A stretch of 34,902 nt of DNA from a virus. Made by a program: the position numbers and the translations under genes. The stretch is from positions 1 to 34,902 of IMG/VR virus record IMGVR_UViG_3300017742_000046, one strand, 5' to 3'. The notes beneath the pieces were generated by a model that searched no databases, was not told the DNA's origin, and saw only the letters and a program-made list of their open reading frames with translations. Positions 1-33,475 of the stretch are shown piece after piece (within the stretch, counting starts at the first letter, position 1; every line of letters starts with the position of its first letter).

Positions 1-123
1 AGCTTCCTGCATCTCCTTCGTGCCGATCACAGATGCAATACGGCTGCGCTCTTGGAAGCTGGCGTTGTTAATAAACTCTTGGGCGTTCGGGCTGTTGAAG
101 CCTGGGAACTTAGCCAAGCCAAC
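1..123. repeat. Terminal overlap: bases 1-123 are identical to 34780-34902. The contig closes on itself, giving 34,779 unique bp.
   Basis: The string agcttcctgcatctccttcgtgccgatcac...cttagccaagccaac is present at both ends in the same orientation. One minus-strand reading frame runs through the junction without a stop. Confidence 0.95.
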
Positions 124-1245
124 CAAATCCTGATCTCCGCCTGCACCAGCTTGGCGAATGGCGTCATCTAGTGCGCTGACCACGTTCGAACCAATGCGAC
201 CATCTCTGACATATGCGTCAGTTGTTTTGATTAGAGAGTTAATAAAGCTGATGTTCGACTTGTGACTTGTCGGGTTCATCGCTGTAACAGCAATCAGATC
301 TGCACCTTTGCCAGCTTTCTTTGTCCCAATACCTTTGCCTTGAACGGCCCAGATTAGACCATTCTCTTGGCTTGATGGCAGCAGCGGGAAGCCTGGGCCA
401 CCCATCATCACCTCTGGAACATCAATCAGCGAACTGTCGATGCCCTTGTAGAAACCACCAGCGCGCGTCAGGTCAGCCACTGTTGGGATAATGCGAGCAT
501 CTTCCAAATCTCTAGGCGTAATGCGCGGTGCATCTACTGGGGTTTGATCGGGAATGTCTGGTAAACCACCGACAACATCAGCGCCAACACCCTGCGCCAT
601 AGATGGATCACCACGGCCACGAATAAAGTCAAAATCAAGTCCACCAAGCGCTCTGGTGTTACCAATCACGTCTGCCATGAATGGGCTGTCGTAGATCTCA
701 CGGGCTAGAATACTTGCGCCCTCTGCTACTGGCTTGGTCAACGGAAACGCCTCTGCAACGCCAAGGCCAGCCTCTAGGCCACCCAAGCCCATCTTGAGGT
801 AATCACCTTCCCGATAGCCCTCGACAGCTGTTCCGCCACCCTCTTCGATGCCATACACAGCGCCCAGTGGCGTTAGATCCGCCAAGCCAAGACCGTCTAG
901 GATGTTCTGAGATGTCGGGCTGGTGTCGCCCATGATGTCGCGTGCGTATCGACCAGCGACATATGGATCTAGGCCCATGCGATTGATTAAAGCGTCCTGA
1001 ACAAGCTGCGTATCCATCTCGCGCATGGTGTAGTCTGGCGCTTGGAGCGTGCCGTAAGTCGCTTCAGCCGCGGCAATGTCTTGCGGTGTTAGACGTGAAG
1101 GTGTTCTGGGAATACGACTAGAAGGCTGCAAGTTGCCGCGATACATAGACACTTCTTCTGGCGTAAAACCAGCAGCGAGAAAGTCATCATCGACCAGACC
1201 TGCTATTGATCGGTCGTATTCTGCTAGTTCTGCCAGTCTGTCCAT
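1..1245 (-). CDS. N-terminal 415 codons of an 850-aa ORF of unknown function in the packaging operon. It continues across the contig junction into 34779..33472.
   Basis: ATG at 1245-1243 overlaps the terS stop (TAATG). My hand translation (MDRLAELAEYDRSIAGLVDDDFLAAGFTPEEVSMYRGNLQPSS...) stays open to base 1. No competing ORF of 60 aa or more is listed for 1-1075. The frame matches the ORF 33472..34896 through the 123-bp overlap. Confidence 0.85.
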   Translation of the reverse strand, partial: MDRLAELAEYDRSIAGLVDDDFLAAGFTPEEVSMYRGNLQPSSRIPRTPSRLTPQDIAAAEATYGTLQAPDYTMREMDTQLVQDALINRMGLDPYVAGRYARDIMGDTSPTSQNILDGLGLADLTPLGAVYGIEEGGGTAVEGYREGDYLKMGLGGLEAGLGVAEAFPLTKPVAEGASILAREIYDSPFMADVIGNTRALGGLDFDFIRGRGDPSMAQGVGADVVGGLPDIPDQTPVDAPRITPRDLEDARIIPTVADLTRAGGFYKGIDSSLIDVPEVMMGGPGFPLLPSSQENGLIWAVQGKGIGTKKAGKGADLIAVTAMNPTSHKSNISFINSLIKTTDAYVRDGRIGSNVVSALDDAIRQAGAGGDQDLVGLAKFPGFNSPNAQEFINNASFQERSRIASVIGTKEMQEA

Positions 1246-1643
1246 TACGCGTCCTTTGGATCTACAATCACCCGCTCGATTTTCTGCACGATTGGACCGC
1301 CTTCTGGCCCTGAGTGTTCATTCTTCACCGTGTCATGCCAATCGGCGCGAAACCTGTTCTTCATGTTGAAGATGTAGCTGGTTGCGTTGAAACCGTCGAT
1401 CCCACCAAACGTAGCCATGCGGCCATTTCGTTCCCACCATGCTTGCGAATAGCGTATTGCTTCCTTTACGGCCTCCGAAAAATCTTTTCTTTCGTTCTGC
1501 CATCTGTCGAAAGTGTCGTATGCAATATCAAGTTCCAGAGCCATTTCGCACTTGCTCATTCCTTGCTTTCCGCACTCAATCACCGTCTCGCACATCTTGG
1601 GTTCGTATTTAGTGGGTCTTCCCTGTTTCTTCTTAGCTGCCAT
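1245..1643 (-). CDS. terS: Terminase small subunit (putative)
   Basis: 132 aa. The N-terminal segment KKKQGRPTKYEPKMCETVIECGKQGMSKCEMALELDIAYDTFDRWQ looks like an HTH. The C-terminal NATSYIFNMKNRFRADW is typical of small-terminase families. A GAGGTG RBS lies 6 nt before ATG 1643. It is the first gene of the packaging block. Confidence 0.7.
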   Translation of the reverse strand: MAAKKKQGRPTKYEPKMCETVIECGKQGMSKCEMALELDIAYDTFDRWQNERKDFSEAVKEAIRYSQAWWERNGRMATFGGIDGFNATSYIFNMKNRFRADWHDTVKNEHSGPEGGPIVQKIERVIVDPKDA

Positions 1644-1712
1644 TTTACACCTCATATCTCAGCCAAGCGGACTGGACGCATGGCTGCAATATAAAGCAAA
1701 GATGGTGTTATA

Positions 1713-2000
1713 TCAATCTTTGCTGGCAACCTCACCACCACACGCTGCGTAACCAGCCATGTCGATCCAGTTGTCTTGGTGCTTTGGGTTATCCCATGCC
1801 CTGACGGTCTTCAGATCAAGCATCATGATTGCGACCTGATCTGCCCTGATAGATACGCCAAGACGTGCGCTCCATATTGCGGCCAGCTTCGAAAAGCTGT
1901 CTTCTGCATCACCGTGGGTGGATGCTCTGTCTTTGGTGACGTATTCGTTTGCTGTTTCCAGAATGTGCGTTCGGTTCACGATCTGTCCTCCACTGGTCAA
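1713..2000 (-). CDS. Hypothetical protein of a conserved phage family (DUF6378-like, from memory)
   Basis: 95 aa. The motif THGDAEDSFSKLAAIWSARLG..ADQVAIMMLDLKTVRAW..DNWIDMAGYAA resembles a widespread small phage protein family. There is a 4-nt overlap with the upstream gene. Confidence 0.6.
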   Translation of the reverse strand: MTSGGQIVNRTHILETANEYVTKDRASTHGDAEDSFSKLAAIWSARLGVSIRADQVAIMMLDLKTVRAWDNPKHQDNWIDMAGYAACGGEVASKD

Positions 2001-2320
2001 TCGGCTTGATCCTGATACTTCCCGTTCCCGTATGATGCGGGTTCTTCTATGCGGTGAATTTCGAAAAGGGGCGATAAAATATCGTTCACAGCGGCGTCAA
2101 ACGTGCCTAGACTATCCTGCCTTCTCCACAATTTTTTAACCACAGCCTCTAACTCTTTTACGCGGGCTTCGTGGATGTCCGCGCGGACGTATTGCTGCCC
2201 TGAAAGGTCGTCATTTACATAACTATCCTTGTGCGCAACTCGTAACTCATCGATCCAGCTTGGTGCGTTGTTTACAGCTTCGCAAGCGTCCACCCAAATC
2301 CGTTCTGGTGCTTCGCTCAT
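1997..2320 (-). CDS. Hypothetical protein
   Basis: 107-aa ORF in the operon frame chain, with 4-nt overlaps at both ends. No motif recognised. Confidence 0.6.
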   Translation of the reverse strand: MSEAPERIWVDACEAVNNAPSWIDELRVAHKDSYVNDDLSGQQYVRADIHEARVKELEAVVKKLWRRQDSLGTFDAAVNDILSPLFEIHRIEEPASYGNGKYQDQAD

Positions 2321-2697
2321 GATGCCTCAACCTCATCGTAATAAGCGTCAAGCAGGGCACTCACGGCCAGTTCGGCTACGGTTACATTCATTCGCTCCGC
2401 TTCAGCAGTGACCCAATCTCGAAACTCTACGTTCTTCTGCGAATGCGGGAAGAATGCGCGCCGTATAGAACCATAGAAAAAATCTGAGCGAAGCTGGCCT
2501 CGCGCATCGCGCACGGTCTGCTGAGAAATCAGGCTCTCGTCTAATGCACGTCGCTTGATCCTTGAGACCTGTGAACAGCTAAGGCCCACCATTTGACCGA
2601 TCTCAGTCAGCGTCAGTCGCGGTGCCGTCTGAATATAGAGCGGCTTGATCACTCTCCAGCGCTCTTTGAACGCCTCTCTGCTTTCCATTTTACCCAT
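2317..2697 (-). CDS. HTH DNA-binding protein (sigma-70 region 4 / LuxR-like helix-turn-helix), possible transcription regulator
   Basis: 126 aa. The segment LTLTEIGQMVGLSCSQVSRIKRRAL is a typical HTH. It is located two genes upstream of terS. Confidence 0.55.
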   Translation of the reverse strand: MGKMESREAFKERWRVIKPLYIQTAPRLTLTEIGQMVGLSCSQVSRIKRRALDESLISQQTVRDARGQLRSDFFYGSIRRAFFPHSQKNVEFRDWVTAEAERMNVTVAELAVSALLDAYYDEVEAS

Positions 2698-2869
2698 TTT
2701 TGCTCTCCTTTGATTTCTTTAGTTCAGCTTTGTACTTACCCCAAGCAGCACGGGAAGCAGTATCAGCCTCATAAGAAGCATCTTGAGCAGCCAATACAGC
2801 CGTCCGAGCATCCCAAGCAACACGATGAGCAGCATGATAAGCCGCCTTTAGTTCTGCAAGCTTAGTCAT
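2690..2869 (-). CDS. Small Ala-rich helical hypothetical protein (59 aa, below the ORF-track cutoff)
   Basis: Hand translation: MTKLAELKAAYHAAHRVAWDARTAVLAAQDASYEADTASRAAWGKYKAELKKSKESKNG. It fills the 2698-2861 gap and overlaps both neighbours by 8 nt. The listed + ORF 2593..2865 is its antisense shadow. Confidence 0.5.
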   Translation of the reverse strand: MTKLAELKAAYHAAHRVAWDARTAVLAAQDASYEADTASRAAWGKYKAELKKSKESKNG

Positions 2870-3053
2870 TATTCTGCGCCTTCTTCAGATCTGCCAACAA
2901 TTGCAGCTTGTCTTTCCGCAAACGCTGCACAGCCTCACTCAAGCGCTTGATTTCGTCCGCTTGCGTCGCGGCCTTGCTCTGCCATTTCTTTGCGTTGGCA
3001 GCCTCGATGTTCAAGCTGGTTAGAAGGCTGCTGACTGTTTCATCTGTGCTCAT
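2862..3053 (-). CDS. Hypothetical coiled-coil protein
   Basis: 63 aa with heptad-like sequence (EIKRLSEAVQRLRKDKLQLLADLKKAQ). ATGA overlap with the upstream gene. Confidence 0.55.
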   Translation of the reverse strand: MSTDETVSSLLTSLNIEAANAKKWQSKAATQADEIKRLSEAVQRLRKDKLQLLADLKKAQNND

Positions 3054-3241
3054 ATGTTAAACCCTTCGATACGTCGATCGCTCACGAACTTTTTAAGATT
3101 CGATTTTGCTTCCCAATATTGCCGGCCGGCACCTGGTGGCGCGTCAAACGTGTTCAGTAGAGCCTCTGCCCAGAAATCTACTTGTTGCCGGAGAAATTTA
3201 AGCTCTGAGGCTTGGGCGGGCGGTAGTTCGTTTTGGATCAT
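3050..3241 (-). CDS. Hypothetical protein
   Basis: 63-aa ORF with a TAATG overlap upstream and an ATGA overlap downstream. Confidence 0.55.
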   Translation of the reverse strand: MIQNELPPAQASELKFLRQQVDFWAEALLNTFDAPPGAGRQYWEAKSNLKKFVSDRRIEGFNI

Positions 3242-3426
3242 TATTTTCCCTCCAACTTAGACAATTCCAGCATCGCTCTCTTAAGTGAAACGCGGTCTAT
3301 TGCGAGATCAGCCGATGCCGTGCTTGATCGCAAACCTGAGCCATAGCCCCGCTCTGCGCGCTTGATGGACGCATCCTTGTAGCGGATGAAATCCCGCAGG
3401 GCTTGGATGCGCTGGTGGTCATTCAT
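3241..3426 (-). CDS. Hypothetical protein
   Basis: 61 aa counted from ATG 3426 (MNDHQRIQALRDF...), which overlaps the stop of the pentapeptide gene (ATGA). The longer track ORF start at 3441 is less likely. Confidence 0.55.
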   Translation of the reverse strand: MNDHQRIQALRDFIRYKDASIKRAERGYGSGLRSSTASADLAIDRVSLKRAMLELSKLEGK

Positions 3427-3653
3427 CGCTTCAGCCTCCATGTGTCAAAAATTATAGCACCTTCCAGATTGGCCCAGCGCAGATCGGCATTGCTCAGATC
3501 GGCACCGCTCAGATTGGCATTGCTCAGATCGGCCCCGCTCAGATCGGCATTGCTCAGATCGGCACCTTTCAGATTGGCTTTCGCACCCTTTGAGTTATCC
3601 GCAAGCCATTCACTATGGGCTGCGAGGACTGCTTTAAGATCTTCTTGTGTCAT
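3423..3653 (-). CDS. Pentapeptide-repeat protein (76 aa)
   Basis: ANLKGADLSNADLSGADLSNANLSGADLSNADLRWANLEGAI gives about eight consecutive A(D/N)LxX pentapeptides. A GGGAGGA RBS precedes ATG 3653. ATGA overlap with the upstream gene. Confidence 0.85.
   Translation of the reverse strand: MTQEDLKAVLAAHSEWLADNSKGAKANLKGADLSNADLSGADLSNANLSGADLSNADLRWANLEGAIIFDTWRLKR
3465..3584. repeat. Eight tandem 15-bp units (cagatYggcNNNNNN) forming the coding repeat of the pentapeptide gene
   Basis: Units start at 3465, 3480, 3495, 3510, 3525, 3540, 3555 and 3570. Units 3480, 3510 and 3540 are nearly identical (cagatYggcattgct). Confidence 0.9.
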
Positions 3654-3832
3654 TTTTTTTCCTCCCAGAGTTTACTAACCCTGTGCTTTAGGTTTTTTTG
3701 TGCTGGGTGCTTTTTTATGAAGGCGCGGCGCTGTTCGAGACTTGGCAAGCTTAGAACGTGCCGTGCAGCGCTTTCTATCCACTGATCCTTGCAGGCTTGT
3801 GCATATGCCTGCTTGGTCTGCGTGTCGGGCAA
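3650..3832 (-). CDS. Hypothetical protein (TTG start)
   Basis: 60 aa. There is no ATG in the open frame. The TTG at 3832 is preceded by GGTGAGG at 5-nt spacing. Confidence 0.5.
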   Translation of the reverse strand: MPDTQTKQAYAQACKDQWIESAARHVLSLPSLEQRRAFIKKHPAQKNLKHRVSKLWEEKK

Positions 3833-3876
3833 GTAAACCTCACCTGCACCGACTGGATCACCCTCACGCCACGGCT

Positions 3877-4335
3877 TTAAAATGGGATTTCATCATCTAG
3901 GTCACGCCCCATTGCGCCACCGCCGCTATTGCCATAACTGCCGCCACCTTGGTTGCCGCCGCCATAGCCACCTTGGTTGTCGGTGCGACCATCAAGCATC
4001 GTCATGACGCCATCATAGCCATTCAAAACCACTTCTGTGGAATACCGATCCTGACCTGATTGATCCTGCCACTTGCGTGTCTGCAATTTGCCTTCGATGT
4101 AAATTTTGGAGCCTTTGCGCAAATATTGCTCCGCGATACGCGCGATACCTTCTTGGAGAATGGCAACCGTGTGCCATTCGGTCTTCTCTCTGCGTTCGCC
4201 AGTGTTCTTGTCCTTCCAATTCTCAGACGTGGCGATGCGCAAATTGCAGACCTTGCCACCATTTTGAAATGTGCGCACTTCTGGGTCGGCCCCCAGATTG
4301 CCAATGATGATAACTTTGTTGACTGAAGCGGCCAT
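3877..4335 (-). CDS. ssb: Single-stranded DNA-binding protein
   Basis: 152 aa. It has an OB-fold N-terminus ([16 protein letters not shown]...TEWHTV...[20 protein letters not shown]), a Gly-rich linker and an acidic DDEIPF tail. Confidence 0.95.
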
Positions 4336-4346
4336 GCTTGCCCCCT

Positions 4347-4529
4347 TTAAGATTGTGAAACGCGATAGAACTTGTCGATCATCCCGTGCTTGCGCATGAA
4401 ATTAACAACGTGCCTCGCTTGTTCTTCTGTTGCTAGGCCGCGATGACCAATGTCCTCAACACCGTAACCTTCTGACAGGTCTTTGATGATGCTGCGAACA
4501 AGTTCATCTGTCAGCCCAGCGCAATTCAT
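4347..4529 (-). CDS. Hypothetical protein
   Basis: 60-aa ORF in the operon orientation, 11 nt upstream of ssb. Confidence 0.5.
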
Positions 4530-4553
4530 AAGTTTTTAGTCCAGTTGATTGGT

Positions 4554-4569
4554 GGGGTCCGAAGCCCCC
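4554..4569 (-). terminator. GC-rich UUCG-tetraloop hairpin downstream of gene 4575..4958
   Basis: The minus-strand RNA reads GGGGGC-UUCG-GACCCC, with one G/A mismatch, 5 nt after the stop. It has no clear U-tract. Confidence 0.4.
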
Positions 4570-4574
4570 GTTGG

Positions 4575-4958
4575 TTATGCTGCTAGTTTTTCAGCCTTCA
4601 AGATGCCCGATTTACAGGCGCTGCGGTTCCAATCGGTTGTGCCGATCACATCCCATTTCCAGTGGGATTTTGCCTCTGGGTGGCCTTGGTGCCACTCGTG
4701 GAAAAATTCGCCAGTGCAAAAGCAGATAGCGTCGACGCCAAAGTCTTTGGGATCAATATCAATGTTTTTGCCTTTTACTGCATGGCCAGCCTTTGCGTGC
4801 CACGACCAGCGTTCGTTTTTGCGGCCATGCAAGCCGGCAAGCTGAACCTTAAAAGTGTCTCCGCCTTTCTCGACGATCCAGCTTCCAGCGTAGTCAGTTA
4901 ATTTAATATCCCCCATCAGCTCGCCCTTGGTGCCGTTTGTGAAATCAAAAACTTTCAT
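4575..4958 (-). CDS. Hypothetical His/Trp/Cys-rich protein
   Basis: 127 aa with DAICFCTGEFFHEWHQGHPEAKSHWKW. Flanked by hairpins on both sides. Confidence 0.6.
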   Translation of the reverse strand: MKVFDFTNGTKGELMGDIKLTDYAGSWIVEKGGDTFKVQLAGLHGRKNERWSWHAKAGHAVKGKNIDIDPKDFGVDAICFCTGEFFHEWHQGHPEAKSHWKWDVIGTTDWNRSACKSGILKAEKLAA

Positions 4959-4982
4959 TTTTATACTTCCTTGATTTGGTTG

Positions 4983-5002
4983 TTGGGGGCCAAAGCCCCC
5001 AA
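4983..5002 (-). terminator. Perfect 8-bp GC-rich hairpin with a UUUG loop downstream of gene 5009..5269
   Basis: The minus-strand RNA reads UUGGGGGC-UUUG-GCCCCCAA and starts 6 nt after the TAA stop. Confidence 0.5.
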
Positions 5003-5008
5003 TAATGC

Positions 5009-5269
5009 TTACTTAATGAAGCATGGATTGTGCAGTGTGCCATCTGGCATCACGCGGCGGATTGCAGCAGAGGCATTGCCCATACGATCAACCCATGCGT
5101 CAGCAAGATTGCCAGCGTGTTCCACATCGTCAGCGTCCAGCTCAACGAAACGATCAGCAACAGACATGTCGCTAGATGTTTCAACATGAACAACGAACGC
5201 TGGCTTGCGCTCAACAATACGCTGACCAGCAGCATCTGCGGAAAGAAGAAAAGAAAGAGAATGTGCCAT
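5009..5269 (-). CDS. Hypothetical acidic protein (moron-like unit)
   Basis: 86 aa, about 13 acidic versus 8 basic residues. It is preceded by a 121-bp gap with a promoter-like motif and followed by a hairpin. Confidence 0.6.
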   Translation of the reverse strand: MAHSLSFLLSADAAGQRIVERKPAFVVHVETSSDMSVADRFVELDADDVEHAGNLADAWVDRMGNASAAIRRVMPDGTLHNPCFIK

Positions 5270-5337
5270 GAGACCCTCCAGTCTGGCTGCGCTGCGTGGC
5301 GGAATTGCCGCGCTTGGCGCTATGTCTTGTTGAAATT

Positions 5338-5387
5338 AGATTATCTCCACACAACACCATATGCAAGGTTTAATTTGCACTTTGCAC
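5338..5387 (-). promoter_or_regulatory. Candidate internal promoter plus operator-like ATGCAA-N8-TTGCAC motif
   Basis: On the minus strand: TTGCAT (5366-5361), 17-nt spacer, TAATCT (5343-5338). The plus-strand string ATGCAAggtttaatTTGCAC (5361-5380) has the same architecture as 7504-7523. An extra TTGCAC lies at 5382-5387. Confidence 0.35.
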
Positions 5388-5390
5388 ATT

Positions 5391-5807
5391 TTATTTATCA
5401 CTTCCGCCAAATTTCTTCACAGAAAATCCAGCTTGAGCCATGATTTCATCTGCGCGTTCTTTGCTCATCCGCTCTCTGGGCTGCGTTGCAATCAGCGGGA
5501 CGTGACCTCTGTCGAAGCTGTTGATCGCTGCGCGTGCAACCATCAGCGGTCCAAGTTCTTTCTGGGCGCGCTCTGCGATGTCGCCTGTCATGGGCTTCTT
5601 GCGGCGATCTGGATTGTCTTTGCCGATCCACCAGCGAACAGCCTTGGCAATCGACCAGGCTGGGAAGTCTTTCAATTCGTGATACCAATCATCTGCGATC
5701 GACTTCATCATGCCTTCGGAGATGTCACCTTGGAAATACTGAGCAAGCAATGAAGCAATGCGTCCAGTGATCCACTTCGCGGGCGCAGGCGTATAGAGTT
5801 TGTTCAT
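5391..5807 (-). CDS. Putative helicase-loader-like protein (G39P-like segment); start uncertain
   Basis: The ORF is open from 6044 and overlaps the upstream gene by 215 nt. ATG 5807 is the first start beyond that gene's stop; alternative ATGs are at 5891 and 6044. SIADDWYHELKDFPAWSIAKAVRWWIGKDNPDRRKKPMTGDIAERA recalls the G39P loader family (from memory). Confidence 0.45.
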   Translation of the reverse strand: MNKLYTPAPAKWITGRIASLLAQYFQGDISEGMMKSIADDWYHELKDFPAWSIAKAVRWWIGKDNPDRRKKPMTGDIAERAQKELGPLMVARAAINSFDRGHVPLIATQPRERMSKERADEIMAQAGFSVKKFGGSDK

Positions 5808-5829
5808 AGCCTCTTCGAGCGCGTCACGC

Positions 5830-6522
5830 TCAGTCTTCGAAGTCAGCGGCGTATGCAGCAAATCCCGCCATGAGCGCGTTATGTCCTCCATTTGCTCTGG
5901 TGGGACGTGATCGGGCAAACTTCTTAGCGTTTCCAAGCCATGTCCGCCAAGCAGCGTCCCAATCTTTGAATGTTGATCCTTTGGCGTGGTGATAATTTCT
6001 GAACTGCTCTGCTTCATGGTTTGTTTCCTCCGTTGAAAAGCCACGTTTCATTGCGTCTTCGATGTTACGATCTGATGGCACCCAATTATCAGGCAACGAA
6101 CAAGAGCGCTTGCGCTTTGCTGGTTTTGGGTCTTCTGACCCAAATAAAGTATCTGGTTTAATATCTGGTTTACTAACTGGTATAGGTTCGCCCTTCTGGG
6201 CAGTTCCATTTGCCTTTTTGGGCAATTGGATTGGCCCCGATGGGCAATACCATTTTGTTCGATCGTAACCTGCCTTGTTGAAGCTGCCTGACAGTATCAA
6301 TCCAGCCTCTTCCAGCTTATCCAAAGCCGTTCTGATCTGCTTGGATGTAAGGTATGGAAAAAGAGCATCGAACGCTTTGATGCTGTTGTAGGTCCAATGA
6401 CGACCATCGTGCAGGTGCTTGCCATTCGCGGCGTTTTTCTGCGTCCACCAAACAATGTTCTGATAAAGAACAGCGGCATTAACGCCAACTTTCGTTGCAA
6501 TCTCTGGATCAAAGCTGTGCAT
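5830..6522 (-). CDS. Replication initiation / replisome organizer protein (winged-helix N-terminus, DnaD-like)
   Basis: 230 aa. The N-terminus VLYQNIVWWTQKNAANGKHLHDGRHWTYNSIKAFDALFPYLTSKQIRTALDKLEEAGLI has a typical phage replication-protein wHTH. The C-terminal AEQFRNYHHAKGSTFKDWDAAWRTWLGNA motif is also typical. Confidence 0.65.
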   Translation of the reverse strand: MHSFDPEIATKVGVNAAVLYQNIVWWTQKNAANGKHLHDGRHWTYNSIKAFDALFPYLTSKQIRTALDKLEEAGLILSGSFNKAGYDRTKWYCPSGPIQLPKKANGTAQKGEPIPVSKPDIKPDTLFGSEDPKPAKRKRSCSLPDNWVPSDRNIEDAMKRGFSTEETNHEAEQFRNYHHAKGSTFKDWDAAWRTWLGNAKKFARSRPTRANGGHNALMAGFAAYAADFED

Positions 6523-6555
6523 CGACTTTTCCTTTTCTCTTGTGGAAACGTCGAT

Positions 6556-6671
6556 CCTGAACTATATTCAGGTCAACGCATCCGCCTATGCGTTTCGCCT
6601 TCACTGTCGTATCCTCCCCGACAGCAGGCATTACTGGGACGGGTTGAGCGCTTGGACACGCTCCCCGTCCC
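6556..6671 (-). promoter_or_regulatory. Structured intergenic region with four consecutive stem-loops
   Basis: Hairpin 1, 6556-6572: CCTGAA/TTCAGG. Hairpin 2, 6575-6594: AACGCAT/ATGCGTT. Hairpin 3, 6604-6624: CTGTCG/CGACAG. Hairpin 4, 6636-6671: GGGACGGG-tt-GAGCG / CGCTC-CCCGTCCC, 13 bp with an 8-nt loop. The function (ori, antitermination RNA or terminator) is unknown. Confidence 0.5.
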
Positions 6672-6682
6672 GACATTTTATA

Positions 6683-6895
6683 TCAGATCGCCCCATCTTC
6701 CAAGCGTTTTAGCGCGCGCAAACGTGACACCTCACTGAGACGATAAATGCCACCTTTCATAATAACCTCTCCAGCATCGTGCATCTGGATCAGCAGATCT
6801 TGAACCTCGCGCGGGTGATGACCTGTCATCTGTGACACCTCGCCAGCAGATGCCGCCTCAATTCCAAACAAATAAATCAAAATGTCCTGCTTCAT
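6683..6895 (-). CDS. Small winged-helix DNA-binding protein (putative)
   Basis: 70 aa. ASAGEVSQMTGHHPREVQDLLIQMHDAGEVIMKGGIYRL looks like a MarR/FaeA-type wHTH. ATGA overlap with the upstream gene. Confidence 0.5.
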   Translation of the reverse strand: MKQDILIYLFGIEAASAGEVSQMTGHHPREVQDLLIQMHDAGEVIMKGGIYRLSEVSRLRALKRLEDGAI

Positions 6896-7251
6896 GTTTC
6901 CCTGACCTCAAGTCCCATTGCACGGGCTACTGCAACCCGCACCTCATAATCGCGTGTTGGCATGCCCTTCACATCTTCATAGATTAAAACGTCATCTTCG
7001 ATGTAGGTGAAGTCAAACGTCAGCTTCATCTTTCGCCCTGTGCGCGTGTAAAGCGGACGGTGCTGGCCCATCAGTTCAACCTTCACCTGGCGCTTTAGAT
7101 CGCTGATCTCGCCTGCACGCTCCAGAAGCTGTAAGTCCATCCAGCGCGCCGCCTCTTTCTTGCTGTCAAACTTGATGTCTCCCACAACAGTTTTCTTCGC
7201 GTTATACTTGTTGCGCGAAGGCTTGCGAAAGAACTTGGGCTGCATCTTCAT
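6892..7251 (-). CDS. DUF1064 family protein (PD-(D/E)xK-like nuclease fold)
   Basis: NKYNAKKTVVGDIKFDSKKEAARWMDLQLLERAGEISDLKRQVKVEL...FDFTYIEDDVLIYEDVKG matches the DUF1064 pattern. ATG 7251 overlaps the upstream stop (ATGA). Confidence 0.75.
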   Translation of the reverse strand: MKMQPKFFRKPSRNKYNAKKTVVGDIKFDSKKEAARWMDLQLLERAGEISDLKRQVKVELMGQHRPLYTRTGRKMKLTFDFTYIEDDVLIYEDVKGMPTRDYEVRVAVARAMGLEVRET

Positions 7252-7451
7252 TTCCAAGCATCCATTGGCACGGCACAATCTGTCAGTTCTTCGATGCGCT
7301 TGCGAACTGAGCGATGCGGCTTAACCTTGCCAGACAGCCAGCGCGAGATCGACGCGCTATCAACGCCAATCTGTTCCGCAAACCAGTTTTTCCGAATGCC
7401 CTGATCCTTGAACCAAGCATCAAACAGCAACACTGCTTTTGTCTTTTCCAT
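7248..7451 (-). CDS. Cro/XRE-type HTH regulator, first gene of the leftward operon
   Basis: 67 aa from ATG 7451, with a GGAGGA RBS. IRKNWFAEQIGVDSASISRWLSGKVKP is a classic HTH. Confidence 0.75.
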   Translation of the reverse strand: MEKTKAVLLFDAWFKDQGIRKNWFAEQIGVDSASISRWLSGKVKPHRSVRKRIEELTDCAVPMDAWK

Positions 7452-7480
7452 TGCACTTCCTCCAATATGTGATGACAGCA

Positions 7481-7509
7481 TATCTAAAAAAAATATCAAC
7501 ACAATGCAA
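7481..7509 (-). promoter_or_regulatory. Candidate leftward early promoter
   Basis: On the minus strand: TTGCAT (7509-7504), 17-nt spacer, TAGATA(T) (7486-7481). It lies about 30 nt upstream of the Cro-like gene. Confidence 0.35.
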
Positions 7510-7546
7510 ATTATTTCTTGCACCTACCAATCGGCGCGTTTAGAAG
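7504..7546 (+). promoter_or_regulatory. Operator-like inverted repeat ATGCAA-N8-TTGCAC plus candidate rightward early promoter
   Basis: The inverted repeat spans 7504-7523. TTGCAC (7518-7523), 17-nt spacer, TAGAAG (7541-7546). A GGAGGA RBS precedes ATG 7571. Confidence 0.35.
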
Positions 7547-7570
7547 TTAATTACTAACGGAGGAAAACAA

Positions 7571-7897
7571 ATGTTTAAATGGAAAGAACAGAACGGCAAG
7601 ATCGTCGCCAACCGCGCATGGATCATGACCGAAGCCTGGGCGATCGTAAATCGCTTCAAGAAGTCTGGCGTCAAAAAGCCAATTAGTGAAGCCATGAAGC
7701 TGGCTTGGTGGACAGCCAAAATGGAAGTCAGCGTGCAAATCAGCGTTCGCGGCCAGATGGCGAACATCAAGGAACTTGCAAAGCTGGGCGCAGATCGTCT
7801 GCGCTCAATGGCAAACGACATTGAGAACATCGATCGTCACAGCACAGCAGACACCAAACGCCTGGCCGACATTCGCCAAGCAATTCACTACGCGTAA
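7571..7897 (+). CDS. Hypothetical protein, first gene of the rightward operon
   Basis: 108 aa with a strong RBS (acGGAGGAaaacaaATG). No motif recognised. Confidence 0.65.
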   Translation: MFKWKEQNGKIVANRAWIMTEAWAIVNRFKKSGVKKPISEAMKLAWWTAKMEVSVQISVRGQMANIKELAKLGADRLRSMANDIENIDRHSTADTKRLADIRQAIHYA

Positions 7898-7907
7898 GGA
7901 GGAAAAT

Positions 7908-8006
7908 ATGCGTATCAGAGACATAATCACAGACCTGATCGGGGTCATCGCAATCTTCGGGGGAGCATATGCCTTCCTCATTATCGGACACGGGTTAGGA
8001 TACTAA
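7908..8006 (+). CDS. 32-aa hydrophobic peptide with a single predicted TM helix
   Basis: MRIRDIITDLIGVIAIFGGAYAFLIIGHGLGY. An AAGGAGGA RBS lies 6 nt upstream of ATG 7908. It fills the gap between flanking genes exactly. Confidence 0.55.
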   Translation: MRIRDIITDLIGVIAIFGGAYAFLIIGHGLGY

Positions 8007-8007
8007 A

Positions 8008-8598
8008 ATGAAAAGCATCGCAACAGCACTCGCATCAGCGCAGATCAACATGGGCAAGGCGCTCAAGCAAGCCAACAACCCGCATTTCCGCAGCAAGTAT
8101 GCAGACCTTGGCAGCGTCATGGATGCCTGTTTGCCAGCGCTTAACGAACACGGCATTGCTGTGATCCAGCCAACAGGCGAAGATGACACTGGCCGCTTTG
8201 TAGAAACCATTATGATCCACGGTGAAAGCGGCGAACAGCTTTCGTGCCGCGTGCCACTGATCGTCAGCAAGAACGACATGCAGGGATATGGCTCTGCGGT
8301 CACATACGCTCGACGCTACGGCCTCATGGCAATGGCTGGCATTGCGCCAGAGGACGACGACGGAAACGCTGCTGCAAAGGCTGCGCCAAAGCAAGAGCCG
8401 CCAAAGCCAATCAGCGCCGATCAGTTCCAAGAGATGAACGGCCTGATCTTTGAAACCGAAACTGACGAAGTGAAGTTCTGCGCATATTGGAAGGTTAATG
8501 AACTCAACCAGATGAACGCCAAGCAAGCAGCAGATGCAATCGCCATGCTCAAGAAGAAAAAAGCATCGCAGGAGGAAAACAATGGAACAGCGGACTGA
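8008..8598 (+). CDS. erf: Erf-family single-strand annealing protein
   Basis: 196 aa. NNPHFRSKYADLGSVMDACLPALNEHGIAVIQ...YGSAVTYARRYGLMAMAGI is the ERF family signature (from memory). Confidence 0.8.
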   Translation: MKSIATALASAQINMGKALKQANNPHFRSKYADLGSVMDACLPALNEHGIAVIQPTGEDDTGRFVETIMIHGESGEQLSCRVPLIVSKNDMQGYGSAVTYARRYGLMAMAGIAPEDDDGNAAAKAAPKQEPPKPISADQFQEMNGLIFETETDEVKFCAYWKVNELNQMNAKQAADAIAMLKKKKASQEENNGTAD

Positions 8599-9196
8599 TG
8601 AATGGTTCGCAGCGCGTCTGGGGTGTGTAACAGCATCCCGCACCGCTGACGTAATGGCCAAGACCAAGAGCGGATACAGCGCCAGCCGTGCAAACTACAT
8701 GGCCCAGCTTATCACAGAACACCTGACCAACGAAAAGGCTGATGGGTTCTCATCCGCTGCAATGCAGTGGGGGACTGAGACAGAGCCACAGGCACGGGCC
8801 GCATACGAACTCATGACCGGCGAAGACGTGCTTGAGGATGGTTTTGTGGCCCACCCTACCATAAAAGGCTTCGGTGCCTCTCCTGACGGGCTTGTGGGCG
8901 CTGACGGGCTGGTTGAGATCAAGTGTCCCAACAGTGCCACGCACATCGACACGCTGCTGTCAGAAAAGGTGCCTGCGAAGTATGTCACGCAGATGCAGGT
9001 GCAGATGATGTGCTGTCAGCGCGAATGGTGCGATTTTGTCAGCTTTGACCCGCGCCTGCCTGGTGACATGAACTTTTGGATGCAACGCGTCTGGGCAGAC
9101 GAAGAGCGCCAGAAAGAAATCGAAACAGAGGTGCGCCTGTTTATCCTTGAGATGGAAGACAAGCTGCAAAATCTGCGCGACAAGTTTGGAGGATAA
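8582..9196 (+). CDS. YqaJ / lambda-exonuclease-like recombination exonuclease
   Basis: Starts at ATG 8582 after GGAGGA. RTDEWFAARLGCVTASRTADVM...WGTETEPQARAAYE...ASPDGLVGADGLVEIKCP matches the YqaJ PD-(D/E)xK pattern. Confidence 0.85.
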   Translation: MEQRTDEWFAARLGCVTASRTADVMAKTKSGYSASRANYMAQLITEHLTNEKADGFSSAAMQWGTETEPQARAAYELMTGEDVLEDGFVAHPTIKGFGASPDGLVGADGLVEIKCPNSATHIDTLLSEKVPAKYVTQMQVQMMCCQREWCDFVSFDPRLPGDMNFWMQRVWADEERQKEIETEVRLFILEMEDKLQNLRDKFGG

Positions 9197-9197
9197 G

Positions 9198-9377
9198 ATG
9201 CAAGTCGATCAAAACAAAATCATTGAAACCTTTGAGCGCGTCGAAGAAGAAGCTGGTGGCCTATGGAACGCCATGCCTTCGATGACACTGGACAAGACTG
9301 CGATCGAACTGGATCTGCCGCGAGAAAAGGTGCGCAGCGTTATGATTGACCACTGGACGCAGGCTGGTGCGGGCTGA
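9198..9377 (+). CDS. Hypothetical protein
   Basis: 59 aa from ATG 9198 with a GGAGGA RBS. The stop overlaps the next ATG. Confidence 0.5.
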   Translation: MQVDQNKIIETFERVEEEAGGLWNAMPSMTLDKTAIELDLPREKVRSVMIDHWTQAGAG

Positions 9378-9835
9378 TGCCCACAAAGATCATCAGAGAA
9401 TTGCAGCATGTTGATGCGCTTGCCAATATGCTGCGTGATCGAAAGTTGCCAATTACTGTAACATGGACGCAAGGCGCTCCGAGATCTACCGCGCAAAACA
9501 GGCTGGCACAAAGATGGTTCACAGACATTGCAGTTCAGCTTGGAGATCAAACGCATGAAGATGTGCGTGCAGAATGTAAGTTGCGCTTCGGCGTTCCAAT
9601 TTTGCGCGCACAGAATGAAGCTTTTAAGCTGTCCTATGATCGAGTTCTGAAGCACTTGCCTTATGAACCAAAACTTGAAGCGATAAAAGCATTTGATCTT
9701 CCAGTAACTCGACTAATGACCGTCAAACAAATGACGGAATTTATGGAACAGATGCAGCTTCATTGGTCAGTGCAAGGCGTTAGACTGACTGACCCAGAGG
9801 CTCTTAAATATGAACAGGAGTTTTGCGATGGGTAA
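9377..9835 (+). CDS. ninB: NinB/Orf-like recombination mediator
   Basis: 152 aa. PRSTAQNRLAQRWFTDIA and MTVKQMTEFMEQMQLHWSVQGVRLTDPE align with lambda NinB (RSLDQNRKLWACLGDVS and MRVGEFAELLELIQAFGTERGVKWSDE), recalled from memory. Confidence 0.65.
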   Translation: MPTKIIRELQHVDALANMLRDRKLPITVTWTQGAPRSTAQNRLAQRWFTDIAVQLGDQTHEDVRAECKLRFGVPILRAQNEAFKLSYDRVLKHLPYEPKLEAIKAFDLPVTRLMTVKQMTEFMEQMQLHWSVQGVRLTDPEALKYEQEFCDG

Positions 9836-10292
9836 AAAAATAGCACCAAAAGGTTCAAGTGAAGAGTTCCTTAGACGCAATGTTGGCCTTCAATCTGATG
9901 ACTGTTTGATTTGGCCATATAGAACAAACAAAGGTTATGGATTAGCCGTAATCAATGGGAAACAAAAAACAGCATCTAGATGGATGTGCATATTGGCTCA
10001 TGGTGAACCAGTAGGTCAGAAAAAACATGCTGCACACCAATGCGGAAACCCAGCTTGCGTAAATCCAAATCATCTAGAATGGAAAACTCACAAACAAAAC
10101 ATGCACGACAAAAAACGTCATGGAACAGACAACATCGGAGAACGAAATGGCAAAACGAACCTAACAGAAGATGACGTTAGATATATCAGATCAGCGCCGC
10201 CAAACTTAGCGCCGCTCATGCAAAAGTATAATATGTCAAAAAACGGAATATCGAAAATTAGAAGTCGCCTAAGATGGGCGCATGTGGAGTAA
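9828..10292 (+). CDS. HNH homing-type endonuclease (HNH_3-like)
   Basis: CLIWPYRTNKGYGLAVINGKQKTASRWMCILAHGEP...AAHQCGNPACVNPNHLEWKTHKQNMHD. ATG 9828 follows AGGAG. Local GC is about 40% against about 52% in the flanks. Confidence 0.85.
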   Translation: MGKKIAPKGSSEEFLRRNVGLQSDDCLIWPYRTNKGYGLAVINGKQKTASRWMCILAHGEPVGQKKHAAHQCGNPACVNPNHLEWKTHKQNMHDKKRHGTDNIGERNGKTNLTEDDVRYIRSAPPNLAPLMQKYNMSKNGISKIRSRLRWAHVE

Positions 10293-10296
10293 AACC

Positions 10297-10575
10297 ATGT
10301 TCAAACACGACGAAGAATTTAAGGAGATGGGTGACAATGCCCACAAAGCAACAGCGGAACAGATCCGCGCATACATCGAACGATTTGAGCGCCTTGAGGC
10401 TGAAAAGCAGGATGTGATGCAGGGACAGAAAGAAATCATGTCTGAGGCCAAAGGCAACGGCTTTAACGTCAAAGCGCTGCGCAAGATTATTGCGGACAGA
10501 AAGCGCGATGCGGATGATCTGGCTGAAGAACAGGAGATTGTAGAACTGTATAAATCAGCGCTGGGGATAGGATAA
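10297..10575 (+). CDS. gapR: GapR-like (DUF2312) DNA-binding protein
   Basis: QIRAYIERFERLEAEKQDVMQGQKEIMSEAKGNGFNVKALRKIIADRKRDADDLAEEQEIVELYKSALG matches the alphaproteobacterial GapR/DUF2312 pattern (AKGNGFDVK..LRK...R). Confidence 0.8.
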   Translation: MFKHDEEFKEMGDNAHKATAEQIRAYIERFERLEAEKQDVMQGQKEIMSEAKGNGFNVKALRKIIADRKRDADDLAEEQEIVELYKSALGIG

Positions 10576-10757
10576 TGAAAGTATCGGTGAAAGAAAAAAA
10601 TGGAAGTTACATGGTAATAAATAATGGTGAGATAGTCGCAGAAAAATTGAGTAATTCTCAGGCATGGAAAATGGCGGACAAGATAACGAACGAGCCAACA
10701 TCACGCCAAGAAGATGTTTATGCTTGGAAAGCAAAAAAGGATGCAAGCAATGAGTAA
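10575..10757 (+). CDS. Hypothetical protein (AT-rich ORFan)
   Basis: 60-aa ORF. Its start overlaps the gapR-like stop. Local GC is about 35-40%. Confidence 0.45.
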   Translation: MKVSVKEKNGSYMVINNGEIVAEKLSNSQAWKMADKITNEPTSRQEDVYAWKAKKDASNE

Positions 10758-10986
10758 TGTCGTTAATCCAGAGCAATTTCAGGAATTTAGGCACAAAAAA
10801 CTTCAAAAGTTAATGGCAGAAGAAAACATGTCGGAATATGTTCTTACTGGCGGCGCTTTTTTGGACGGATTGAACTCAGGTGTTTCTATTGCAGACATGG
10901 AAAATTGCTACATGCAAAGCCAAGATTTCCTTGAATTTGAAAGAAAAGTTTGGGCTGAAATTTATAAAATAGGAAAATACAAATGA
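10750..10986 (+). CDS. Hypothetical protein (AT-rich ORFan)
   Basis: 78 aa from ATG 10750, with AAGGA 8 nt upstream. The ORF is open from 10714. Confidence 0.45.
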   Translation: MSNVVNPEQFQEFRHKKLQKLMAEENMSEYVLTGGAFLDGLNSGVSIADMENCYMQSQDFLEFERKVWAEIYKIGKYK

Positions 10987-11174
10987 TGTGGCTGAGAAAA
11001 ATCGTGATGCGCCCCACGGCCAAAAAGGAACTGGCAAGGATCAAAGAAGAGCGCGACAGGACGGAGGAAGCCATCAAACGCGCGCGACGTAACAAGCAGC
11101 GGGTGACTGACTTGTATGACCATGCTCAGAAACTGACCAAGGAAGCGCATCGTTGGGAGAAATACCTGCGATGA
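10983..11174 (+). CDS. Hypothetical basic coiled-coil protein
   Basis: 63 aa (KKELARIKEERDRTEEAIKRARRNKQR). ATGA overlaps at both ends. Confidence 0.5.
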   Translation: MMWLRKIVMRPTAKKELARIKEERDRTEEAIKRARRNKQRVTDLYDHAQKLTKEAHRWEKYLR

Positions 11175-11494
11175 GCCTCACTGGCAAGGGTCCAATAGGC
11201 CTCAAAAAGCCAAAACCAGAACGCGGCACGAAGGCTGCAAAGGAACATTTGCAACGTGTAAAAATGCTTCCTTGCGTCATCTGCCGCAAACCTGGCCCAT
11301 CAGATGCACACCACGTCATCTGCAATAGATACGGAACAAACAAAGCGAGCGATTTCGATGTCATCCCCCTCTGCAAAGCCCACCACCAAGATGGGCCAGA
11401 AGCCATCCACAACGGAAAACGATCATGGGTCGAAAAGCATGGACCAGATCACGGATATCTCGACACCGTGCGAAGGTGGCTCGACGCACTTTAA
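11171..11494 (+). CDS. DUF968-like HNH/Zn-finger nuclease-fold protein
   Basis: 107 aa from ATG 11171. LPCVICRKPGPSDAHHVICNRYGTNKASDFDVIPLCKAHHQDGPEAIHNG has the C-x2-C...HH...C-x2-HH...H arrangement. Confidence 0.6.
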   Translation: MSLTGKGPIGLKKPKPERGTKAAKEHLQRVKMLPCVICRKPGPSDAHHVICNRYGTNKASDFDVIPLCKAHHQDGPEAIHNGKRSWVEKHGPDHGYLDTVRRWLDAL

Positions 11495-11498
11495 CGCC

Positions 11499-11846
11499 AT
11501 GCCTGTGATGATACGTGGCGTAATGTATCAGTCACAAAAAAAAGCAGCAAAGGCGCTGGGCGTATCAAACAGTGCCATCAGCCAACGCCTGCGCGTGAAT
11601 GGCAACGCGGAGACAGTAGGGCTGGGGTTGAAAGGCGCTTCGATCGGCAACACAAACCGCGCCAGAAAGATTACCATTTGGGACATGACGTTTCCGTCAA
11701 GAACAAAGGCTGCGGAATTGATCGGGATAACGCGAAGCCAGCTTAATAAATGGACCTCACCCAAAGCGTCCAAATGGCAACAGAACCAGCTGCTGATCCA
11801 CGCGCTGAGATACAAGCGTGAACGTAACAAAAAAAATGGCCGCTAG
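11499..11846 (+). CDS. Protein with two NUMOD1-like HTH DNA-binding repeats
   Basis: 115 aa from ATG 11499. The repeats are VMYQSQKKAAKALGVSNSAISQRL and MTFPSRTKAAELIGITRSQLNKW. This pattern is typical of the DNA-binding modules of homing endonucleases. Confidence 0.5.
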   Translation: MPVMIRGVMYQSQKKAAKALGVSNSAISQRLRVNGNAETVGLGLKGASIGNTNRARKITIWDMTFPSRTKAAELIGITRSQLNKWTSPKASKWQQNQLLIHALRYKRERNKKNGR

Positions 11847-11873
11847 AGCGACCGAGTTGGGGAGGTAACTTCT

Positions 11874-12098
11874 TTAGAGATCTGCGCAGGCGGCGTCCAG
11901 CTTGCGTATGAGCGCCGCGCCAGTCGTTATGGACTGATCCCCGCCATCTTCCGCTAAAGCAGCTGCATGGGCCGATCTGTCGCGCAGAGTGCCATCGCAG
12001 ATCGCGCTATTGCTTGCCACGGTCGCGCAGCCAGTCACGAAGAACATCAGGATCATCGTCAGTGTCAACTTCATCCATGCGTTTGCGTGTTTCAACAT
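11874..12098 (-). CDS. Lipoprotein, candidate o-spanin (Rz1-like)
   Basis: Signal peptide MKLTLTMILMFFVTGC with a VTGC lipobox. The mature part is about 50 aa with 2 further Cys. The 5' end is embedded, out of frame, in the preceding TM-protein gene. Confidence 0.55.
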   Translation of the reverse strand: MLKHANAWMKLTLTMILMFFVTGCATVASNSAICDGTLRDRSAHAAALAEDGGDQSITTGAALIRKLDAACADL

Positions 12099-32248: not shown

Positions 32249-33475
32249 TCACCGTGCGATAGGCATCACAGTCGCGATTGCTTTGGCCTGCGGCTTCTTC
32301 TGCGTGTTGGCCCTTCGCGCACCCTCACAGGCATATCTGATTGCGTCAATAACGTGGTTATCTTTGTCTTCCAACACGGGCAAAATCGAGCCTGTGTCGC
32401 GGTCTGTCTTGTAGCTATACAGCGTCAGTTCGTCGATCGTGTGCTTGCAGCGCGGGTGAACGATGATGTCAAACGACTTGAGCCACTCAACACCTTCTTC
32501 AACAGACTTTGGCCCCTTGATCGCTGGCTGTATCTTAGGGAAGCCGTTCTTGCGCATATGGCTGATGGTCTCTGGGCGTGCGCTGTCGGCCACCATGGGC
32601 CATTTCTCAGCCTCTGGGATGGACATGACCAGCGAAGGCGTGTCCACAATCTCACAGCCCACCTGATAAGCCTCATAATCAATATACAGCTTGCGACCAA
32701 TGATGTGGCTGCGAACAGCAACGGTCGGGTCTGTAGCAAAGCCCCAGTCAGCGCCAAGGCGGTGGATTGCGTCTGGCGGTGCCTCAAAGTCTTCGATCGT
32801 CCAGTTCTTGAACACGCGCGTCTCGCTGTTGCGGACATAATCGCCCTTCCAGACGTGCATGTATTTGTCAGGGTCGCGCTTCTTGTCGTATTCCATTTCG
32901 TCCTTGAGAACGTCAGGGAACCACGGGTTGTCTTCGAAGTTGACCTCAACAACAGTGCTTTTCTCTGGGGCGTTTGGTCCGCGCAACAATCCCTCGATCG
33001 GATCGGTGTCGTAACGTGGGTTCCAAGTGAACCACAGCTGCGAACCTGGCTTACGAATGGTCGGGCGCAGAATGTCCAATGAGAACTGGCTCAGGCTCTG
33101 CGCTTCCTCAACCCAAGCGATGTCATAACCTTCAAGCGACTTGATGCTGTCAGCTGTGTGGTTCTGCAAACCTTGGAAGATGATGATGCCGCCATGAACG
33201 GATCTGATCTCGAACTCTTTGATCTGGAACATATGCGAGACGCCAAGTTCTTCGATCTTATTTTCAAGCAGCTTCTTAACCGACTGCGCCAGAGACTTCT
33301 GAACCTCACGAACGCACACAGCGTCAACGCGCTCCATGATGCTGCGCTCAATCAGCATCTCTGCGAACATGTGAGACTTGCCAGAACCACGGCCACCATG
33401 AGCGCCAAGGTATCTGGCGTCTGGATTACTGAGAACAGGAAGCGCCCAGCGCGGTGTTTTTATCTGGAGGTTCAC
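32249..33475 (-). CDS. terL: Terminase large subunit (Terminase_3 / PBSX-like)
   Basis: 408 aa. Walker A GAHGGRGSGKSH, IAWVEEAQ (Walker B-like) and a C-terminal nuclease region DNHVIDAIRYA. The GTG start at 33475 overlaps the upstream TGA (GTGA). Confidence 0.93.
   Translation of the reverse strand: MNLQIKTPRWALPVLSNPDARYLGAHGGRGSGKSHMFAEMLIERSIMERVDAVCVREVQKSLAQSVKKLLENKIEELGVSHMFQIKEFEIRSVHGGIIIFQGLQNHTADSIKSLEGYDIAWVEEAQSLSQFSLDILRPTIRKPGSQLWFTWNPRYDTDPIEGLLRGPNAPEKSTVVEVNFEDNPWFPDVLKDEMEYDKKRDPDKYMHVWKGDYVRNSETRVFKNWTIEDFEAPPDAIHRLGADWGFATDPTVAVRSHIIGRKLYIDYEAYQVGCEIVDTPSLVMSIPEAEKWPMVADSARPETISHMRKNGFPKIQPAIKGPKSVEEGVEWLKSFDIIVHPRCKHTIDELTLYSYKTDRDTGSILPVLEDKDNHVIDAIRYACEGARRANTQKKPQAKAIATVMPIAR

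Follow-up and report, generated by a model that had tools for sequence, protein, structure and literature searches.

A predicted two-coil pentapeptide-repeat protein with a variable array in the small-gene block of a phage with a P22-type coat

What might a pentapeptide-repeat protein (PRP) of only 76 amino acids do for the phage that encodes it? The question arises from a small gene in the window studied here, which is the whole 34,902-nucleotide stretch of IMG/VR record IMGVR_UViG_3300017742_000046. The first-pass annotation had suggested that its product takes part in host takeover or acts against host defences, as a DNA mimic or a topoisomerase modulator of the kind represented by Qnr, MfpA and AlbG.

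The record is a complete phage genome with a P22-type coat. It carries direct terminal repeats of 123 bp, giving a circle of 34,779 bp (34.8 kb), and CheckV places its completeness at 100%. Its structural genes form a P22-like module, and the nearest sequenced relative by coat protein is MW202867 (Manatee Spring), at 71% identity; the coat proteins of Pseudomonas and Ralstonia podophages are 57-61% identical. Because the early region of MW202867 differs and the pentapeptide-repeat gene was not found there, we regard the gene as accessory. The coat protein did not lead to a host. Contigs L125-L132 encode coat proteins with 55-92% identity to it and sit in metagenome-assembled genome (MAG) bins whose labels include Mycobacterium, Acidithiobacillales, Limnohabitans and Anabaena; this taxonomy is inconsistent, the contigs are probably mis-binned phage contigs, and the labels are therefore unfit for host assignment.

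The gene sits in a minus-strand operon that runs, in order, through a Cro-like helix-turn-helix (HTH) protein, a DUF1064/resolvase-like protein, a replication initiator, the single-stranded DNA-binding protein (SSB), a set of small ORFs, a second HTH protein, a DUF6378 protein and the small terminase subunit, TerS (Table 1). The setting described at first pass, among small ORFans between ssb and the packaging genes, thus holds: SSB and TerS bound the block, and profile searches gave no family annotation for the small ORFs between them. When the 76-aa protein and seven small ORFs near it were compared with PADLOC models, none matched. Erf and a YqaJ exonuclease are encoded on the plus strand, in an operon that diverges from this one.

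Table 1. Positions of the pentapeptide-repeat gene, its parts and other features within the window
Feature	Position	Strand	Remarks
Cro-like HTH protein	7248-7523	-	First gene of the minus-strand operon
DUF1064/resolvase-like protein	6892-7278	-	Minus-strand operon
Replication initiator	5830-6522	-	Minus-strand operon
SSB	3877-4335	-	phrog_44, E 6.2e-53; upstream boundary of the small-ORF block
Upstream 60-aa ORFan	3650-3832	-	No family match; conserved in L085; TGA stop overlaps the PRP start (ATGA)
Shine-Dalgarno GGGAGG	3661-3666	-	7 nt upstream of the ATG; identical in L085
PRP gene, 76 aa	3423-3653 (stop included)	-	In the ORF list; PF00805; phrog_7713; kept in L085
N-terminal cap, residues 1-25	3579-3653	-	Predicted helix 3-18; L..vL..H..WL....G motif
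Eight canonical A(D/N)LxX repeats, residues 26-65	3459-3578	-	15-nt units; two predicted beta-helix coils
C-terminal cap, residues 66-76	3426-3458	-	Degenerate ninth repeat AIIFD plus TWRLKR; conserved motif
Downstream 61-aa ORFan	3241-3426	-	Its ATG overlaps the PRP stop (ATGA)
126-aa protein, sigma-70 region-4-type HTH	2317-2697	-	PF04545, E 4e-6
DUF6378 protein	1713-2000	-	Between the 126-aa HTH protein and TerS
TerS	1245-1655	-	phrog_309, E 1.8e-25; downstream boundary of the small-ORF block
terL	32249-33475		phrog_3717, E 9e-59
850-aa ORF	1-1245 and 33472-34902	-	Joined across the 123-bp terminal repeat
Erf and YqaJ exonuclease	8008-9196	+	Divergent operon
HNH endonuclease	9810-10292	+	PF13392, E 2e-7

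Three other features of the genome were observed along the way. The 126-aa protein with the sigma-70 region-4-type HTH lies just upstream of the DUF6378 gene and terS; it could be an activator of late genes. The HNH endonuclease gene falls in a low-GC stretch (10001-11000, GC 0.41); here the GC content is markedly lower and the positive AT skew is strong, and the stretch may be a mobile insert that the plus-strand operon acquired recently. Finally, terS and terL are separated by an ORF of 850 aa, an unusual place for a large ORFan, whose sole family match is to phrog_2563 (E 8e-5, over 65 residues).

Judged from sequence, the 76-aa ORF is a genuine gene: its ribosome-binding site is strong, it overlaps each neighbouring ORF at an ATGA, and an orthologue is conserved between matching flanks. 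Each of the two overlaps is 4 nt, and the gene is translationally coupled to its neighbours. The downstream ORFan can also be read as 66 aa from position 3441; this is probably not its true start, to judge from the orthologous contig, where the ORF begins at the ATGA-overlapped ATG. A 91-aa ORF on the opposite strand (3403-3678, plus; …LLRSAPLRLALLRSAPLRSALL…) was considered and rejected as a gene: it is a shadow of the 15-nt repeats and has no family support. The orthologous contig carries equivalent opposite-strand shadow ORFs.

The protein reads MTQEDLKAVLAAHSEWLADNSKGAK, then the eight repeats ANLKG ADLSN ADLSG ADLSN ANLSG ADLSN ADLRW ANLEG, then AIIFD TWRLKR. Its match to PF00805 (residues 26-65, E 6.5e-17) scores 61.2 bits against a cut-off of 20.2, passing the Pfam gathering threshold and going well beyond what chance would give. 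An AlphaFold2 model built on a 15-sequence alignment has a mean pLDDT of 89.9; it places a helix at residues 3-18 (pLDDT 93-96), followed by one bridge residue per five positions from residue 27 to residue 67, with low confidence for the last 6 residues. The product described at first pass, a short N-terminal helix followed by about eight pentapeptides, is what these two results point to. We take the array to be a predicted right-handed quadrilateral beta-helix of two coils, with four repeats per coil. When the orthologue with 15 repeats was modelled in the same way (pLDDT 94.2), the added repeats simply lengthened the solenoid, and the C-terminal cap formed a short hairpin.

Foldseek comparisons agree with this picture. 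Np275 superimposes with an rmsd of 0.5 Å over 41-43 residues, and among predicted viral structures in BFVD, many phage proteins labelled 'pentapeptide' match with TMq values up to 0.86. The possibility, raised at first pass, that the structure would prove not to be a pentapeptide beta-helix is therefore set aside by the predicted fold and the Foldseek matches together. Solved proteins that share the A(D/N)LxX consensus and the Rfr beta-helix include Np275/Np276 (2J8I/2J8K), Rfr23 (2O6W), Alr5209 (6OMX), HetL (3DU1) and the synthetic Beta1 (4YFO). Sequence E-values to such consensus-type PRPs reach 9e-29, with the caution that similarity between PRPs is inflated by the repeats, and the rmsd is 0.5 Å over two coils. 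Unlike the phage protein, these are cellular or designed proteins of 4 to 12 coils, and they give no clue to mechanism.

Over the full length, the PDB match is of another sort. The N-terminal domain of NleL, a helix followed by a solenoid, aligns with TMq 0.62-0.65, and the NleL/SopA N-terminal beta-helix (3NAW, 3SQV) is the best full-length structural match, at 37% identity over 70 residues. That domain is regarded as a protein-interaction module. NleL and SopA themselves are 600-aa HECT-like ubiquitin ligases, type III effectors that enter eukaryotic cells by secretion, and the 76-aa protein lacks the ligase domain.

At the DNA level, the array consists of eight canonical 15-nt units. Their number and period are as first annotated; the coordinates given then, 3465-3584, were offset by 6 nt from the in-frame array at 3459-3578. 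Tandem Repeats Finder reports a period of 15/30 over 3465-3578 with a score of 165. Three of the 15-nt units are mutually identical (15/15), and the 30-nt double units agree at 26-28/30, an identity that, as read from the sequence, is the signature of recent duplication.

Such an array might be expected to vary among relatives, as the first-pass annotation predicted, and it does. Nucleotide comparison of the window with the phage collection offered little with which to look at this: megablast of positions 1-12000 gave zero matches, and a search at greater distance returned ssb and generic repeat matches only. A scan of genome contigs with the cap motifs found no orthologues. The same scan of metagenomes recovered stand-alone orthologues of cap-array-cap form (on contigs L085, L082, L083 and L086). 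These share the N-cap H..WLADxSKG and the C-cap GAIxxDxWxL, have no extra domain, and lie in a similar small-ORF block.

The closest of them, L085 (Ga0181424_10094929), is syntenic with positions 3815 to 2799 of the window at 78-82% nucleotide identity. Its PRP gene has the same start, Shine-Dalgarno sequence, upstream region, N-cap and C-cap; at the cap-coding ends of the gene, identity rises above the contig-wide value of about 80%. The array, however, holds 15 repeats versus 8, and this is the one length difference between the two genes, an in-frame block of 105 bp within the array. In a second lineage, L082 and L083 have 6 repeats (75 aa) versus 28 in L086 (176 aa), while their flanks are 91-93% identical. 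Two further metagenomic orthologues of this form are P0025 and P0059, of which P0059 has 4 repeats. All array indels are multiples of 15 nt, and the caps, the Shine-Dalgarno sequence and the reading frame are preserved across the two lineages, which are only about 57% identical. The array thus evolves as 15-nt units are added or removed in frame, presumably through slippage or short-homology recombination; the phage encodes a recombinase pair of its own, Erf and YqaJ. A comparable case is orf232 of Salmonella phages L and ST64T, a PRP gene in the early left operon of these P22-like phages, whose length differs between the two by one 15-bp repeat (PMC8022706). Unlike the gene studied here, orf232 encodes 232 aa, with about 15 repeats and further sequence, and lies in another operon.

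The repeats are not all that varies in this block. Between the homologues of the 61-aa and 63-aa genes, L085 has about 155 bp more than the window (682-852, corresponding to about 3240-3253), including a 56-aa ORF; the small-ORF block therefore gains or loses whole genes besides repeats.

The wider family is large. The exact 76-aa protein is a singleton cluster, and small PRPs with the same N-terminal cap occur in 437 of 50,697 phage records, among them Listeria, Rheinheimera, Staphylococcus, Mycobacterium and Salmonella phages. The search for homologues in other phages that the first-pass annotation had proposed thus turned up both a broad family and, in L085, a relative in a syntenic small-ORF block. 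The best PHROG is phrog_7713 (E 3.2e-16), matched over profile positions 4-72 of 103; the C-terminal third of the profile is absent here. All PHROGs matched are annotated 'unknown function', and the protein belongs to a common and mostly uncharacterised phage class. Most homologues in IMG/VR are 150-350 aa long, with an extra C-terminal domain such as DUF5758 or 'GC..EEW'. As a separate observation, several of the human-gut contigs L096-L123 (L102, L108, L109 and L111, for example) carry 3-6 paralogous PRP-DUF5758 genes in tandem, each with a different repeat number, a striking local expansion of a gene family.

With most homologues longer, one might ask whether the 76-aa form is a truncated remnant of a fusion protein. 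We reject this, since five sequences belonging to two lineages have kept the C-cap, its motif GAI(I/V)(F/L)D(T/G)W(R/K)(L/V) being kept in L085, P0025, P0059 and L086. A structural role in the virion is likewise rejected; the gene is in the early block, distant from the tail genes, and the sole tail-fibre match has an E-value of 0.15.

The conserved residues themselves are structural. They comprise H13, W16 and G23 of the N-cap, which are nearly invariant among homologues, the inward-facing Ala and Leu of the repeats, and the Trp-containing C-cap. Therefore, any binding surface would have to be the outward-facing i-1, i+1 and i+2 positions of the four flat faces. We imagine the product as a cytoplasmic mini-solenoid, closed at one end by the N-terminal helix and at the other by the hydrophobic Trp cap, with exactly two coils between. 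The gene is one of the accessory members of a nin-like block of small genes, between the replication and ssb genes and terS.

What such a protein might bind is suggested by a relative in Vibrio phage 24. Deletion of its PRP gene, 24_60, greatly raised the sensitivity of the phage to Sucellos, an abortive-infection system resembling RexAB, and phages that escaped Sucellos were mutated in gp60, at Y112R and at N110N/N115D (bioRxiv 10.1101/2024.07.02.601686). The deposited protein (SBVc24_0060, KJ572844.2, 12900-13322) has 140 aa: the N-cap comes first, then eight repeats, then about 75 aa that form a C-terminal domain. This protein matches phrog_7713 (E 4e-24, profile positions 9-101), as does the 76-aa protein, to which it is 53% identical over 57 aa. 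The two are also alike in their N-cap motif and in being encoded by a small gene among overlapping small ORFs of the early/replication region.

The residue numbers of the escaper mutations do not fit the deposited repeats directly. Residues N, Y and N fall on 110, 112 and 115 at one offset only, +70 residues, or 14 pentapeptides. Thus, by our own inference and not that of the authors, the residues changed would be N40, Y42 and N45 of the deposited sequence, outward-facing positions of the array, and this mapping suggests that gp60 acts through its repeat faces. The array is probably longer than the deposited record shows; according to the authors, the repeat region was mis-assembled and later re-sequenced (bioRxiv 10.1101/2024.07.02.601686).

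The analogy has its limits. The C-terminal domain of gp60, which matches phrog_37032 and bears the 'GC..EEW' motif, follows the array in gp60-like anti-Sucellos proteins and is not present in the 76-aa protein, whose chain ends 11 residues past the array and whose only match to phrog_37032 (E 0.028) is on repeat residues 23-45. With that domain absent, the analogy may not transfer. The array of gp60 is also probably longer than deposited and, as deposited, net basic (4 acidic and 6 basic residues), whereas the 76-aa protein is acidic. The anti-defence role proposed at first pass has therefore gained one precedent from the same PHROG, by analogy only and from a protein with an extra domain.

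Taking these together, the best-supported reading, drawn from the analogy with gp60, is that the 76-aa protein may be a small decoy or inhibitor that binds a host factor, most plausibly a component of an anti-phage defence; we would give it a probability of roughly 0.4. One can envision a more specific version, in which the mini-solenoid acts alone as a minimal decoy against defence, a host immune sensor of RexA-like or other abortive-infection type being bound by its flat repeat faces rather than by an appended domain, and rapid in-frame changes between 4 and 28 repeats would serve an arms race by retuning avidity or evading recognition. This version we consider doubtful. If it were true, the orthologues would represent the smallest known pentapeptide-repeat inhibitor in a natural range of lengths.

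Free variation in the length and charge of the array is also what one would expect of a weakly constrained gene, and this weighs on the decoy or inhibitor reading. Could the gene be a dispensable accessory ORF, its array changing neutrally and its product having no specific target under most conditions? Array length, angular register between the caps and charge do vary freely, the gene is missing from the nearest coat-protein relative, and the exact protein has no other member in its cluster. Against this, both caps, the Shine-Dalgarno sequence and the reading frame are kept in two well-separated lineages, no indel departs from a multiple of 15 nt, hundreds of phages carry this module, and one member of the family, gp60, has a measured phenotype. 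We see neutrality as unlikely on this balance, if somewhat less so than the specific decoy scheme above.

That brings us back to DNA mimicry. Qnr proteins have about 214-218 aa and about 9 coils, with loops A and B; MfpA has 183 aa and 8 coils, with a C-terminal helix that mediates a tail-to-tail dimer. As a group, Qnr, MfpA and AlbG span 183-221 aa and 8-10 coils, have a C-terminal dimerisation helix and, in Qnr, loops, and are conserved in length. The 76-aa protein resembles them in fold class and, in this copy, in its acidic surface. It differs in having two coils, no loops and an N-terminal helix, the only helix predicted; the AlphaFold2 model has no C-terminal dimerisation helix. The rise per coil in this fold is about 4.8 Å, and the two coils extend about 10 Å, roughly 3 bp, against about 100 Å for the MfpA dimer. 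Nor do the family models recognize the protein: the Qnr model NF033086 gives 19.9 bits against a cut-off of 240, and the MfpA model NF000349 gives 21.3 bits against a cut-off of 360, about 10-fold under the cut-offs.

The orthologues argue in the same direction. DNA mimics such as Ocr and ArdA present a surface that is strongly acidic throughout the family and covers the footprint of a target enzyme, tens of Å across. The 76-aa protein has a net charge of -3.4 (pI 4.8), or about -2 per coil, a value shared by L085. However, proteins with the same caps have net charges of -6.4 (L085), -0.3 (P0025), +0.6 (P0059) and +3.6 (L086, pI 9.4), with pI values from 4.6 to 9.4, and their 4 to 28 repeats correspond to 1 to 7 coils. 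Neither the length nor the angular register of the two ends is thus constrained, unlike in Qnr and MfpA, whose length is fixed. The Asp found at i-1 is the consensus of the PRP family as a whole and is present too in cyanobacterial PRPs that are not DNA mimics. The first-pass proposal of a mimic or gyrase modulator of the Qnr, MfpA and AlbG type is thus not supported: the model scores, the two coils and the missing dimerisation helix count against it, as do the spread of charge and repeat number among orthologues and the basic array of gp60. The specific arguments offered for DNA mimicry are removed, and it is unlikely that the protein is a fixed-length B-DNA mimic binding gyrase as Qnr and MfpA do.

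A looser form of mimicry can still be envisioned, in which an acidic beta-helix, perhaps as an end-to-end dimer, passes for a short piece of B-DNA and titrates a DNA-binding enzyme; candidate targets are gyrase, a RexA-like sensor of DNA, and components of restriction-modification or BREX systems. The fold is that of MfpA, Qnr and AlbG, and both the 76-aa protein and its closest orthologue are acidic. Small acidic mimics are a known class among phage proteins (PMC7261183, PMC10886550), and gp60 counters a RexAB-like system, with RexA thought to sense DNA-protein complexes (bioRxiv 10.1101/2024.07.02.601686). Set against the short solenoid, the absent dimerisation helix, the low family scores, the variable orthologues, the basic gp60 array and the consensus nature of the Asp residues, these points leave this form of mimicry improbable as well, about as doubtful as the stand-alone decoy.

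The partner might instead be one of the phage's own proteins. On this account, the 76-aa protein would be an adaptor or regulator of SSB, Erf/YqaJ, the replication initiator or the terminase, rather than a ligand of a host factor. The position of the gene would suit such a role, directly downstream of ssb, in an operon shared with replication genes and just upstream of terS, and the PRP modules of many phage homologues are joined to a variety of C-terminal domains, DUF5758 and 'GC..EEW' among them, which suggests a generic scaffold or adaptor. However, no co-variation was seen with any neighbouring gene, phages whose replication modules are unrelated also carry homologues, and the L082 and L086 lineage has different gene neighbours, a DNA methylase among them. 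We consider this very unlikely, the least probable of the explanations weighed here.

The reading of the protein as a decoy or inhibitor of a host factor would bear on a family that is widespread and poorly understood: phage PRP genes are common and spread over several PHROGs, with functions known for hardly any of them. The version at this locus is the smallest natural one, with two predicted coils and no extra domain, and its orthologues form a series of 4, 6, 8, 15 and 28 repeats. Such a series is convenient for asking whether the repeat surface alone is enough for anti-defence activity, as gp60 hints, and whether DNA mimicry is involved at all. Without anti-defence activity, this would be an ordinary accessory gene whose repeat is unstable.
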